The notes below the pieces were generated by a model. The model saw only the letters and a program-made list of their open reading frames with translations. It was not told the DNA's origin and did no database searches. The translations under genes were made by a program, and so were the position numbers. Shown in pieces: positions 765-10,890 of a DNA stretch of 11,081 nt (positions are counted from its first letter, which is position 1; each line of letters starts with the position of its first letter). Origin of the DNA: Escherichia coli (GTDB lineage: Bacteria > Pseudomonadota > Gammaproteobacteria > Enterobacterales > Enterobacteriaceae); the NCBI RefSeq assembly GCF_003334315.1, contig NZ_QOWR01000086.1, one strand, 5' to 3'.

Positions 765-1130
765 TTAATTTAATCGTATTGTGCTGGCATTTTCATCAGC
801 CCCTTTTTGCCATACTTCATGCAGTTGGCTGGCATTTTCAACATTGTTGCAGCTGGCAGGAAAGCTTTTACCGGAAAGTCCTCGGGCATAAGTAAAATCG
901 GTCTGGCAAGTTTTCTTTTGTCCTTCGGCATATCCTTTAAGGTATAGACCGCGATCCGCCTGTGAATCGCTAAATGCATCGTCATCTTTTATGGCGCTGC
1001 CCGATATCGCATCTTCCATACCGACATCATACCAGTCGGTGCTGGTCAAGGTTGGCGCGTGAGTATAAGGATCAATCTGACATCCGCTAACCAGTAAAGC
1101 CAACAAGGGGGCGATAAACTTTTTCATCAT
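765..1130 (-). CDS. yfiL: YfiL, small lipoprotein of unknown function (DUF2799-like)
   Basis: The track ORF runs 765..1169, but the likely start is the ATG at 1130, preceded by AAGGAG with a 6-nt spacer. That gives 121 aa beginning MMKKFIAPLLALLVSGCQ, i.e. a signal peptide plus lipobox (LVSGC). Confidence 0.8.
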   Translation of the reverse strand: MMKKFIAPLLALLVSGCQIDPYTHAPTLTSTDWYDVGMEDAISGSAIKDDDAFSDSQADRGLYLKGYAEGQKKTCQTDFTYARGLSGKSFPASCNNVENASQLHEVWQKGADENASTIRLN

Positions 1131-1175
1131 TTCTTTCTCCTTTTTCAAAGCATAGCGGATTGTTTTCAAAGGGAG

Positions 1176-1268
1176 TGTAAATTTATCTATACAGAGGTAA
1201 GGGTTGAAAGCGCGACTAAATTGCCTGTGTAAATAAAAATGTACGAAATATGGATTGAAAACTTTACT
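1176..1268. promoter_or_regulatory. Cluster of three TyrR-box-like operators in the yfiL/aroF divergent region
   Basis: Matches to the TyrR box consensus TGTAAA-N6-TTTACA: TGTAAATTTATCTATACA (1176..1193), TGTAAATAAAAATGTACG (1228..1245), TGGATTGAAAACTTTACT (1251..1268). aroF is the classic tyrosine-repressed TyrR target. Boxes were matched by eye. Confidence 0.6.
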
Positions 1269-1282
1269 TTATGTGTTATCGT
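1255..1282 (+). promoter_or_regulatory. Candidate aroF sigma-70 promoter (-35 TTGAAA, -10 TATCGT, 16-bp spacer) overlapping a TyrR box
   Basis: TTGAAA at 1255..1260 and TATCGT at 1277..1282, about 60 nt upstream of the aroF ATG. AGGA Shine-Dalgarno at 1328..1331. Hexamers picked by eye. Confidence 0.4.
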
Positions 1283-1339
1283 TACGTCATCCTCGCTGAG
1301 GATCAACTATCGCAAACGAGCATAAACAGGATCGCCATC

Positions 1340-2410
1340 ATGCAAAAAGACGCGCTGAATAACGTACATATTACCGACGAACAGGTTTTAATGACTCCGG
1401 AACAACTGAAGGCCGCTTTTCCATTGAGCCTGCAACAAGAAGCCCAGATTGCTGACTCGCGTAAAAGCATTTCAGATATTATCGCCGGGCGCGATCCTCG
1501 TCTGCTGGTAGTATGTGGTCCTTGTTCCATTCATGATCCGGAAACTGCTCTGGAATATGCTCGTCGATTTAAAGCCCTTGCCGCAGAGGTCAGCGATAGC
1601 CTCTATCTGGTAATGCGCGTCTATTTTGAAAAACCCCGTACCACTGTCGGCTGGAAAGGGTTAATTAACGATCCCCATATGGATGGCTCTTTTGATGTAG
1701 AAGCCGGGCTGCAGATCGCGCGTAAATTGCTGCTTGAGCTGGTGAATATGGGACTGCCACTGGCGACGGAAGCGTTAGATCCGAATAGCCCGCAATACCT
1801 GGGCGATCTGTTTAGCTGGTCAGCAATTGGTGCTCGTACAACGGAATCGCAAACTCACCGTGAAATGGCCTCCGGGCTTTCCATGCCGGTTGGTTTTAAA
1901 AACGGCACCGACGGCAGTCTGGCAACAGCAATTAACGCTATGCGCGCCGCCGCCCAGCCGCACCGTTTTGTTGGCATTAACCAGGCAGGGCAGGTTGCGT
2001 TGCTACAAACTCAGGGGAATCCGGACGGCCATGTGATCCTGCGCGGTGGTAAAGCGCCGAACTATAGCCCTGCGGATGTTGCGCAATGTGAAAAAGAGAT
2101 GGAACAGGCGGGACTGCGCCCGTCTCTGATGGTAGATTGCAGCCACGGTAATTCCAATAAAGATTATCGCCGTCAGCCTGCGGTGGCAGAATCCGTGGTT
2201 GCTCAAATCAAAGATGGCAATCGCTCAATTATTGGTCTGATGATCGAAAGTAATATCCACGAGGGCAATCAGTCTTCCGAGCAACCGCGCAGTGAAATGA
2301 AATACGGTGTATCCGTAACCGATGCCTGCATTAGCTGGGAAATGACCGATGCCTTGCTGCGTGAAATTCATCAGGATCTGAACGGGCAGCTGACGGCTCG
2401 CGTGGCTTAA
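1340..2410 (+). CDS. aroF: Tyrosine-sensitive DAHP synthase (3-deoxy-D-arabino-heptulosonate-7-phosphate synthase)
   Basis: Track ORF 1271..2410; the start is taken at the ATG at 1340 ([15 protein letters not shown]...), giving 356 aa, the known AroF length and N-terminus. Class I DAHP synthase sequence. Followed 10 nt later by tyrA, the classic aroF-tyrA operon. Confidence 0.95.
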
Positions 2411-2420
2411 GAGGTTTATT

Positions 2421-3542
2421 ATGGTTGCTGAATTGACCGCATTACGCGATCAAATTGATGAAGTCGATAAAGCGCTGCTGAATTTATTAGCGAAGCGTCT
2501 GGAACTGGTTGCTGAAGTGGGCGAGGTGAAAAGCCGCTTTGGACTGCCTATTTATGTTCCGGAGCGCGAGGCATCTATGTTGGCCTCGCGTCGTGCAGAG
2601 GCGGAAGCTCTGGGTGTACCGCCAGATCTGATTGAGGATGTTTTGCGTCGGGTGATGCGTGAATCTTACTCCAGTGAAAACGACAAAGGATTTAAAACAC
2701 TTTGTCCGTCACTGCGTCCGGTGGTTATCGTCGGCGGTGGCGGTCAGATGGGACGCCTGTTCGAGAAGATGCTGACCCTCTCGGGTTATCAGGTGCGGAT
2801 TCTGGAGCAACATGACTGGGATCGAGCGGCTGATATTGTTGCCGATGCCGGAATGGTGATTGTTAGTGTGCCAATCCACGTTACTGAGCAAGTTATTGGC
2901 AAATTACCGCCTTTACCGAAAGATTGTATTCTGGTCGATCTGGCATCAGTGAAAAATGGGCCATTACAGGCCATGCTGGCGGCGCATGATGGTCCGGTGC
3001 TGGGGCTACACCCGATGTTCGGTCCGGACAGCGGTAGCCTGGCAAAGCAAGTTGTGGTCTGGTGTGATGGACGTAAACCGGAAGCATACCAATGGTTTCT
3101 GGAGCAAATTCAGGTCTGGGGCGCTCGGCTGCATCGTATTAGCGCCGTCGAGCACGATCAGAATATGGCGTTTATTCAGGCACTGCGCCACTTTGCTACT
3201 TTTGCTTACGGGCTGCACCTGGCAGAAGAAAATGTTCAGCTTGAGCAACTTCTGGCGCTCTCTTCGCCGATTTACCGCCTTGAGCTGGCGATGGTCGGGC
3301 GACTGTTTGCTCAGGATCCGCAGCTTTATGCCGACATCATTATGTCGTCAGAGCGTAATCTGGCGTTAATCAAACGTTACTATAAGCGTTTCGGCGAGGC
3401 GATTGAGTTGCTGGAGCAGGGCGATAAGCAGGCGTTTATTGACAGTTTCCGCAAGGTGGAGCACTGGTTCGGCGATTACGCACAGCGTTTTCAGAGTGAA
3501 AGCCGCGTGTTATTGCGTCAGGCGAATGACAATCGCCAGTAA
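2421..3542 (+). CDS. tyrA: Bifunctional chorismate mutase / prephenate dehydrogenase (T-protein)
   Basis: 373-aa ORF with an N-terminal chorismate mutase region and a Rossmann-type motif ([14 protein letters not shown]) for the NAD-dependent dehydrogenase. AAGAGG Shine-Dalgarno overlaps the aroF stop. Confidence 0.95.
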
Positions 3543-4765: not shown

Positions 4766-4797
4766 AATAAAAAAGGCCCCCCGATTTGGGAGGCCTT
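4766..4797 (-). terminator. pheA attenuator (intrinsic terminator of the pheL leader transcript)
   Basis: Minus strand reads GGCCTCCCAAATCGGGGGGCC followed by TTTTTTATT, a GC-rich hairpin plus U-run. It sits between the pheL stop (4844) and the pheA start (4745). Confidence 0.85.
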
Positions 4798-4843
4798 ATT
4801 GTTCGTCTTCGCATTCTGTTTCACACGACGAAACGCCTCCCAT

Positions 4844-4891
4844 TCAGGGGAAGGTAAAAAAGAATGCGAAGAAAAACGGTATGTGTTTCAT
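4844..4891 (-). CDS. pheL: pheA leader peptide (Phe-rich attenuation peptide)
   Basis: Minus strand ATGAAACACATACCGTTTTTCTTCGCATTCTTTTTTACCTTCCCCTGA translates [15 protein letters not shown]: 15 aa with 7 Phe codons. Too short for the ORF track; found by reading the sequence. Confidence 0.9.
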
Positions 4892-4916
4892 GTTTGTTTC
4901 CTTAAGTGACTTTAGT

Positions 4917-8187: not shown

Positions 8188-8249
8188 CCTAAAGAATCAA
8201 GACGATCCGGTACGCGTGATTTTCTTTTCACATTAATCTGGTCAATAAC

Positions 8250-8278
8250 CTTGAATAATTGAGGGATGACCTCATTTA
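8250..8278 (+). promoter_or_regulatory. Candidate sigma-32 (heat-shock) promoter of clpB
   Basis: CTTGAA at 8250..8255 and CCTCATTTA at 8270..8278, separated by 14 nt. This fits the sigma-32 consensus (CTTGAA ... CCCCATNT). clpB is a known heat-shock regulon member. Confidence 0.6.
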
Positions 8279-8316
8279 ATCTCCAGTAGCAACTTTGATC
8301 CGTTATGGGAGGAGTT

Positions 8317-10890
8317 ATGCGTCTGGATCGTCTTACTAATAAATTCCAGCTTGCTCTTGCCGATGCCCAATCACTTGCACTTGGGCACGACAACCAATTT
8401 ATCGAACCACTTCATTTAATGAGCGCCCTGCTGAATCAGGAAGGGGGTTCGGTTAGTCCTTTATTAACATCCGCTGGCATAAATGCTGGCCAGTTGCGCA
8501 CAGATATCAATCAGGCATTAAATCGTTTACCGCAGGTTGAAGGTACTGGTGGTGATGTCCAGCCATCACAGGATCTGGTGCGCGTTCTTAATCTTTGCGA
8601 CAAGCTGGCGCAAAAACGTGGTGATAACTTTATCTCGTCAGAACTGTTCGTTCTGGCGGCACTTGAGTCTCGCGGCACGCTGGCCGACATCCTGAAAGCA
8701 GCAGGGGCGACCACCGCCAACATTACTCAAGCGATTGAACAAATGCGTGGAGGTGAAAGCGTGAACGATCAAGGTGCTGAAGACCAACGTCAGGCTTTGA
8801 AAAAATATACCATCGACCTTACCGAACGAGCCGAACAGGGCAAACTCGATCCGGTGATTGGTCGTGATGAAGAAATTCGCCGTACCATTCAGGTGCTGCA
8901 ACGTCGTACTAAAAATAACCCGGTACTGATTGGTGAACCCGGCGTCGGTAAAACTGCCATCGTTGAAGGTCTGGCGCAGCGTATTATCAACGGCGAAGTG
9001 CCGGAAGGGTTGAAAGGCCGCCGGGTACTGGCGCTGGATATGGGCGCGCTGGTGGCTGGGGCGAAATATCGCGGTGAGTTTGAAGAACGTTTAAAAGGCG
9101 TGCTTAACGATCTTGCCAAACAGGAAGGCAACGTCATCCTATTTATCGACGAATTACATACCATGGTCGGCGCGGGTAAAGCCGATGGCGCAATGGACGC
9201 CGGAAACATGCTGAAACCGGCGCTGGCGCGTGGTGAATTGCACTGCGTAGGTGCCACGACGCTTGACGAATATCGCCAGTACATTGAAAAAGATGCTGCG
9301 CTGGAACGTCGTTTCCAGAAAGTGTTTGTTGCCGAGCCTTCTGTTGAAGATACCATTGCGATTCTGCGTGGCCTGAAAGAACGTTACGAATTGCACCACC
9401 ATGTGCAAATTACTGACCCGGCAATTGTTGCAGCGGCGACGTTGTCTCATCGCTACATTGCTGACCGTCAGCTGCCGGATAAAGCCATCGACCTGATCGA
9501 TGAAGCAGCATCCAGCATTCGTATGCAGATTGACTCAAAACCAGAAGAACTCGACCGACTCGATCGTCGTATCATCCAGCTCAAACTGGAACAACAGGCG
9601 TTAATGAAAGAGTCTGATGAAGCCAGTAAAAAACGTCTGGATATGCTCAACGAAGAACTGAGCGACAAAGAACGTCAGTACTCCGAGTTAGAAGAAGAGT
9701 GGAAAGCAGAGAAGGCATCGCTTTCTGGTACGCAGACCATTAAAGCGGAACTGGAACAGGCGAAAATCGCTATTGAACAGGCTCGCCGTGTGGGGGACCT
9801 GGCGCGGATGTCTGAACTGCAATACGGCAAAATCCCGGAACTGGAAAAGCAACTGGAAGCCGCAACGCAGCTCGAAGGCAAAACTATGCGTCTGTTGCGT
9901 AATAAAGTGACCGACGCCGAAATTGCTGAAGTGCTGGCGCGTTGGACGGGGATTCCGGTTTCTCGCATGATGGAAAGCGAGCGCGAAAAACTGCTGCGTA
10001 TGGAGCAAGAACTGCACCATCGCGTAATTGGTCAGAACGAAGCGGTTGATGCGGTATCTAACGCTATTCGTCGTAGCCGTGCGGGGCTGGCGGATCCAAA
10101 TCGCCCGATTGGTTCATTCCTGTTCCTCGGCCCAACTGGTGTGGGGAAAACAGAGCTTTGTAAGGCGCTGGCGAACTTTATGTTTGATAGCGACGAGGCG
10201 ATGGTCCGTATCGATATGTCCGAGTTTATGGAGAAACACTCGGTGTCTCGTTTGGTTGGTGCGCCTCCGGGATATGTCGGTTATGAAGAAGGTGGCTACC
10301 TGACCGAAGCGGTGCGTCGTCGTCCGTATTCCGTCATCCTGCTGGATGAAGTGGAAAAAGCGCATCCGGATGTCTTCAACATTCTGTTGCAGGTACTGGA
10401 TGATGGGCGTCTGACTGACGGGCAAGGGAGAACGGTCGACTTCCGTAATACGGTCGTCATTATGACCTCTAACCTCGGTTCCGATCTGATTCAGGAACGC
10501 TTCGGTGAACTGGATTATGCGCACATGAAAGAGCTGGTGCTCGGTGTGGTAAGCCATAACTTCCGTCCGGAATTCATTAACCGTATCGATGAAGTGGTGG
10601 TCTTCCATCCGCTGGGTGAACAGCACATTGCCTCGATTGCGCAGATTCAGTTGAAACGTCTGTACAAACGTCTGGAAGAACGTGGTTATGAAATCCACAT
10701 TTCTGACGAGGCGCTGAAACTGCTGAGCGAGAACGGTTACGATCCGGTCTATGGTGCACGTCCTCTGAAACGTGCAATTCAGCAGCAGATCGAAAACCCG
10801 CTGGCACAGCAAATACTGTCTGGTGAATTGGTTCCGGGTAAAGTGATTCGCCTGGAAGTTAATGAAGACCGGATTGTCGCCGTCCAGTAA
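8317..10890 (+). CDS. clpB: ClpB disaggregase (Hsp100/Clp AAA+ chaperone)
   Basis: Track ORF 8305..10890; the start is taken at the ATG at 8317 ([18 protein letters not shown]...), giving 857 aa. GGGAGGAG Shine-Dalgarno at 8307..8314. Two Walker A motifs (GEPGVGKT and GPTGVGKT) and a coiled-coil middle domain. Confidence 0.95.
8749..8763 (+). promoter_or_regulatory. Internal translation initiation site for the short ClpB isoform (ClpB-80)
   Basis: In-frame GTG at 8761 (codon 149), preceded by GGAGGTG (8749..8755) with a 5-nt spacer. E. coli clpB is known to yield a truncated isoform from an internal GTG at codon 149. Confidence 0.65.

Follow-up and report, generated by a model that had tools for sequence, protein, structure and literature searches.

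The spacer between yfiL and aroF of Escherichia coli separates two divergent genes and contains sequences that resemble TyrR operators, which raises two questions: whether these sequences are the tyrosine-responsive switch of aroF-tyrA, and whether they also act on yfiL. We addressed both in a window of 11,081 nucleotides, by which we mean the whole stretch of DNA that was analyzed. The 1-kb stretch around the spacer matches E. coli K-12 MG1655 with 100% identity and was found in all complete E. coli genomes (5,426/5,426). The RefSeq annotation gives the following genes.

765..1130, minus strand: yfiL, DUF2799 lipoprotein gene, divergent neighbor of aroF
1340..2410, plus strand: aroF, tyrosine-sensitive DAHP synthase, first gene of aroF-tyrA
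2421..3542: tyrA, second gene of aroF-tyrA
farther along the window, past tyrA, minus strand: pheA

Because yfiL occupies the minus strand up to 1130 and aroF the plus strand from 1340 on, the region 1131..1339 represents the whole yfiL/aroF intergenic spacer, 209 bp in the annotation of the MG1655 match, with an A+T content of 63%. The annotation bears out the gene calls yfiL and aroF-tyrA made in a preliminary description of the locus. That description had also labeled the yfiL product a lipoprotein, which is reasonable because its N terminus, MMKKFIAPLLALLVSGC, carries a lipobox. Downstream of yfiL, yfiR follows after a gap of 149 bp in this window. An Rfam search returned zero RNA families in the spacer. 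Elsewhere in the window, matches above the gathering score were Phe_leader, the pheL attenuator upstream of pheA (4767-4892, minus strand), and the RyfD sRNA (8198-8336, plus strand), which lies just upstream of a long ORF at 8305..10890.

TyrR boxes and the aroF promoter

Candidate sites were scored by their matches, out of 12, to the consensus TGTAAA-N6-TTTACA. TyrR boxes with at least 10 of 12 matches are classified as strong and those with fewer than 10 as weak, and a G-N14-C pair is invariant and essential in functional boxes (PMC4374768). The operator and promoter elements on the aroF side are as follows.

1176-1193: distal strong TyrR box, TGTAAATTTATCTATACA, 11/12, with G-N14-C, 22.1 bits, matrix rank 1
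1228-1245: proximal strong TyrR box, TGTAAATAAAAATGTACG, 10/12, with G-N14-C, 21.8 bits, matrix rank 2
1251-1268: weak TyrR box, TGGATTGAAAACTTTACT, 8/12, with G-N14-C, 9.75 bits, matrix rank 3
1255..1282, plus strand: aroF sigma-70 promoter, -35 TTGAAA (1255-1260), 16-bp spacer, extended -10 TGtTATCGT (1274-1282)
1289..1339, plus strand: predicted aroF 5′ leader of about 51 nt, with a hairpin (1289-1303), the block TATCGCAAACGAG (1307-1319) and a Shine-Dalgarno sequence, AGGA (1329-1332)

The G-N14-C pair is present in all three boxes of the spacer. The preliminary description had reported three close matches within 93 bp, and three sites do lie in 1176..1268, but the third reaches only 8 of 12 matches. 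Since a strong box is defined by at least 10 of 12 matches and a weak one by fewer, the cluster comprises two strong boxes, at 1176-1193 and 1228-1245, and one weak box. The weak box sits beside a strong one, its center 23 bp from that of the proximal strong box. The distal box, which we take to be "box 3" in the Pittard nomenclature, is 52 bp from the proximal strong box in this window.

The aroF promoter is the only sigma-70-like promoter in 1000..1500. Its -10 hexamer, TATCGT (1277-1282), is preceded by TG, and a genomic SELEX study with RpoD holoenzyme lists the same aroF hexamers, TTGAAA and TATCGT (PMC3946193). The -35 hexamer is contained in the weak box, which thus overlies the core promoter, and the proximal strong box stops 9 bp upstream of the -35. 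Two of the boxes had been described as adjacent to or overlapping the -35 and -10 hexamers; this holds for the -35, but no box touches the -10. Relative to an aroF start predicted near 1289 from the position of the -10 hexamer, the boxes are centered at about -104.5, -52.5 and -29.5.

The predicted aroF mRNA begins with a hairpin, AUCCUC-GCU-GAGGAU (1289-1303), that is present in most of the 17 Enterobacteriaceae genera compared below but displays little covariation or compensatory change among them. Overall, the leader folds no better than shuffled sequences (z = -0.26). The block TATCGCAAACGAG (1307-1319) is invariant across the 17 genera and is not accounted for by the TyrR boxes, the promoter, the Shine-Dalgarno sequence or any Rfam family; it could be a translational element or a contact site for an sRNA or a protein. 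The supplements of Kim 2012, which we searched for mapped start sites, mention neither yfiL nor aroF. The spacer also figures in a genomic SELEX list for the RpoH holoenzyme, with an intensity of 3.5 against a cut-off of 3.0 that is too marginal to interpret (PMC5493296).

Conservation, chance expectation and register

We scanned 80 aroF loci across the Gammaproteobacteria, with one genome per species, and aligned the spacers of 17 Enterobacteriaceae genera, one genome each, for footprinting. The invariant columns of this alignment coincide with the half-sites and the -35, and the spacer is otherwise scrambled. They read TG.A / T.C in the distal box and TGTAA / T.C in the proximal strong box, and over the weak box and the -35 the sequence TGGATTG....CTTTAC is nearly invariant. 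The spacing is conserved as well. The proximal strong and weak boxes are 23 bp apart in 17 of the 17 genomes, and the distal and proximal strong boxes are separated by 51-53 bp in 14 of them; in the other 3, namely Klebsiella sp. BIGb0407, an Enterobacteriaceae MAG and Mangrovibacter (loci L014, L015 and L016), the distance is 61-62 bp. The step of 9-10 bp between these two classes is approximately one helical turn. As far as spacing can tell, it would be consistent with a requirement that the distal and proximal boxes share one face of the helix, with 52 bp here and 51-53 or 61-62 bp elsewhere.

Outside this group, most Yersinia, Serratia, Pectobacterium, Brenneria and Budvicia loci have an adjacent pair of boxes at 22-23 bp. 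In a set of Vibrio loci (L036, L039, L040, L045, L050 and L053), a strong-plus-weak pair is found with boxes at about -137 and -114 from the ATG. The third strong box of these loci lies not upstream of the promoter but downstream of it, about 29 bp ahead of the ATG.

Within E. coli itself, the identity of the spacer goes down to 90%, with 1,956 of the 5,426 genomes in the 90-95% band. Substitutions are concentrated in 1165-1232, where they fall within the N6 spacers and the stretch that separates the distal box from the proximal strong box. Neither the TGTAAA cores nor the G and C positions are hit, and the aroF promoter and leader are spared, as are the 35 bp proximal to yfiL.

We then asked what chance would produce. 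The number of sites with three mismatches or fewer is not enriched in the window (4 observed, 4.84 expected), and 8/12 sites with a G-N14-C pair are common (20 observed against 14.5 expected per 11 kb); by itself, the weak box is thus statistically unremarkable. Sites with at least 10 matches are a different matter. Only two exist in the 11 kb, against 0.30 expected per window, and both are in the spacer, 52 bp apart. The three-site cluster occurred in none of 2,000 dinucleotide-preserving shuffles of the whole window and in none of 20,000 such shuffles of the spacer, which control for its 63% A+T content; two sites with at least 10 matches appeared in 0.015% of the spacer shuffles.

Scoring of the region with a TyrR weight matrix, which the preliminary description had proposed as a check, gave a concordant picture. 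A matrix trained on 96 aroF-upstream boxes from genera other than Escherichia placed the three boxes first, second and third among the 11,060 positions of the window. The 95th percentile of the maximum in simulated windows was 12.7 bits with the same matrix, and 0.2 sites are expected per 11 kb at the 9.75 bits of the weak box. This test is only partly independent of the consensus, because the training sites were chosen by consensus match. That the matches are functionless products of an AT-rich spacer, as its composition, the expected number of sites with up to three mismatches and the frequency of 8/12 sites might suggest, has a negligible probability and is refuted by the spacer shuffles, the invariance of the half-sites amid scrambled flanks and the conserved spacing of the boxes.

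A second alternative concerns the register of the third operator, which could be placed at 1256-1273 (TGAAAACTTTACTTTATG, 9/12) rather than at 1251-1268. The former is nearer to the bare consensus, with three mismatches instead of four. However, position 17 is not a C in this register, so that the G-N14-C pair needed for function in TyrR boxes (PMC4374768) is incomplete, and the matrix score is 4.6 bits, compared with 9.75 bits for 1251-1268. Moreover, it is the 1251-1268 register that yields the constant 23-bp spacing in the 17 genera, and a spacing of 22-23 bp is repeated at the majority of the scanned loci of the Yersinia, Serratia and Pectobacterium type. The shifted register is therefore very improbable as the third operator, and we treated the 1256-1273 match as an echo of the weak box at 1251-1268.

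Repression of aroF-tyrA by TyrR and tyrosine

Taken together, these observations make it almost certain that the region is the operator-promoter of E. coli aroF-tyrA, repressed by TyrR in the presence of tyrosine. The sites, their register and their conservation were observed here; the binding of TyrR and the dependence on tyrosine come from the literature. The architecture for tyrosine-mediated repression put forward in the preliminary description is supported by the consensus matches, the G-N14-C pairs, the matrix ranks, the invariance of the half-sites and the spacing, and we found no sequence evidence that contradicts it. The published work agrees. A TyrR hexamer blocks RNA polymerase at aroF-tyrA (PMC10170061), aroF is among the TyrR targets identified by genomic SELEX (PMC5791370), and deletion of tyrR in Yersinia pestis increases the expression of aroF 39.5-fold and that of tyrA 19.4-fold (PMC4325908). 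When tyrosine and ATP are available, TyrR forms a hexamer that has a higher affinity for DNA and fills adjacent weak boxes too (PMC4374768).

The sequence is the aroF TyrR operator itself, base for base, and as such is already known. Compared with the E. coli K-12 aroF-tyrA operator, the locus is the same and the sequence identical, with two strong boxes, a weak box over the -35 and tyrosine-dependent repression by the hexamer; there is no difference between them, and what we add is the conservation across genera, the phasing analysis and the yfiL side. Repression of aroF-tyrA by TyrR with tyrosine is textbook knowledge, and TyrR dimers bind strong boxes. The operator was reportedly worked out by Garner and Herrmann, Cobbett, Andrews and Pittard, and Andrews et al. 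are said to have dealt in 1991 with the position of the TyrR box at tyrP and aroF.

The arrangement suggests how the switch may work. TyrR dimers would be anchored with high affinity at the strong boxes, 1176-1193 and 1228-1245. Tyrosine and ATP would cause the protein to self-associate into the hexamer, which would then also occupy the weak box at 1251-1268, with the -35 inside it, 23 bp from the proximal strong box. The distal box is removed from the proximal strong box by 52 bp, approximately five helical turns, so that the two would lie on the same face of the DNA and one hexamer could hold all three boxes, with the DNA between them bent or looped. RNA polymerase would thereby be excluded from the promoter and aroF-tyrA repressed.

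Other TyrR-controlled promoters share parts of this layout. Like aroF, tyrP has an adjacent strong-plus-weak pair at its promoter and involves self-association of TyrR with tyrosine (PMC4374768). Relative to tyrP and aroL, aroF adds the distal strong box about five helical turns upstream. At its promoter, aroL likewise has a strong box next to a weak one and involves self-association of TyrR with tyrosine; its third box is located downstream of the promoter. The Vibrionaceae aroF loci scanned, where one box lies near -29 relative to the ATG, resemble this aroL layout.

The yfiL side of the spacer

The preliminary description had left open whether the operators also affect yfiL, rightly so: nothing that we found places yfiL under TyrR, and some evidence places it under RpoS instead. 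The minus strand of the spacer region (1000..1500) contains no canonical sigma-70 promoter. In the alignment of the seven genomes with a divergent yfiL, only one block is conserved in the interval from the distal box to the start codon of yfiL, and from it we propose the following element.

1156..1149, minus strand: candidate -10 element of yfiL, GCTATGCT, sigma-S-like, with a C at -13, inferred from the conserved GCTAYGCT

The GCTAYGCT sequence is conserved in 7 of the 7 genomes with a divergent yfiL amid unconserved surroundings, and it is absent where no yfiL adjoins aroF. Sigma-S promoters typically have a C immediately before a TATACT-like -10. We consider GCTATGCT a candidate sigma-S-type -10 of yfiL on account of this feature and of the presence of yfiL in the RpoS iModulon of the PRECISE compendium. 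In addition, yfiL is upregulated on entry into stationary phase in O157:H7, and one paper ties yfiL to the sigma-S response. The sigma-S consensus string KCTAYRCTTAA occurs in PMC5650638. The yfiL start predicted from this element lies at about 1142, which would leave a leader of about 12 nt in E. coli.

A different yfiL promoter has been put forward in print, TTTTCA-17-TTTTAT at 1261..1233 on the minus strand (PMC3946193). It is unlikely, as its -10 lacks an A at -11 and it is not conserved in the other genomes with an adjacent yfiL. This published guess maps onto the proximal TyrR boxes.

With the candidate start at 1142, the distal box would be centered at about -42.5 from that start, where bound TyrR would overlap the -35 region of the putative promoter, and the distance between the box and the candidate -10 is 21-25 nt across genera. 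The operator might thus be bidirectional, its boxes, and above all the distal one at 1176-1193, also controlling yfiL and possibly yfiR-dgcN-yfiB. The proximity of a -10 candidate to the distal box in all seven yfiL-adjacent genomes speaks for this idea, as does the inclusion of yfiL with the downstream genes in the designation yfiLRNB (PMC10294631). A precedent is provided by the divergent pair akr-ipdC of Enterobacter cloacae UW5, in which, as between yfiL and aroF, the TyrR boxes lie between divergent genes and a weak box relies on a strong one (PMC4374768).

Several observations nevertheless make a bidirectional operator unlikely. First, yfiL does not adjoin aroF in 10 of the 17 Enterobacteriaceae genomes, and these 10 keep the three boxes, with boxes and spacing equally conserved; aroF alone therefore explains their retention. 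In some genera (loci L007, L010 and L012), aroF has yfiR as its divergent neighbor at a distance of 486-666 bp, and no yfiL was detected in the interval; yfiL is thus an insert of variable presence that separates aroF from the yfiRNB module. Second, the distance from the distal box to the yfiL -10 drifts over its 21-25 nt and is not conserved in phase, in contrast to the tight spacing on the aroF side. Third, the RpoS iModulon includes yfiL, which is not among the genes listed for the Tryptophan (aroF-tyrA) and GntR/TyrR iModulons, and yfiL expression rises as cells enter stationary phase. Fourth, both akr and ipdC were shown to respond to TyrR, and the 2015 paper describing them presents itself as the earliest account of TyrR governing two divergent genes (PMC4374768), whereas of the yfiL/aroF pair aroF alone has a known response and the expression data for yfiL point to RpoS. 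Finally, the yfiL start site on which the -42.5 position depends is itself a prediction.

A strong control of yfiL by TyrR is thus unlikely, and a real effect of any size improbable. In its specific form, in which a TyrR dimer or hexamer on 1176-1193 would modulate a sigma-S-type yfiL promoter with GCTATGCT as its -10, the proposal is doubtful, slightly more so than that of a bidirectional operator in general. A protein bound near -42.5 could interfere with RNA polymerase at the yfiL promoter or contact it.

The aroF-tyrA operator is a textbook case in which a ligand-driven change from dimer to hexamer turns two anchors and a weak promoter site into a tight switch, and it is used in metabolic engineering and in biosensors. 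The comparative spacing, with a fixed 23 bp between the adjacent boxes and a shift of about one turn in the position of the distal box, lends modest added support to bridging of boxes on the same face of the DNA. Apart from the yfiL side, the finding is textbook material throughout. If TyrR did act there, yfiL/aroF would be a second TyrR-controlled divergent pair and the E. coli TyrR regulon would gain yfiL as a member; and should yfiL share a transcript with yfiR-dgcN-yfiB, a c-di-GMP operon in Escherichia, Citrobacter and Enterobacter would be linked to aromatic amino acid status.
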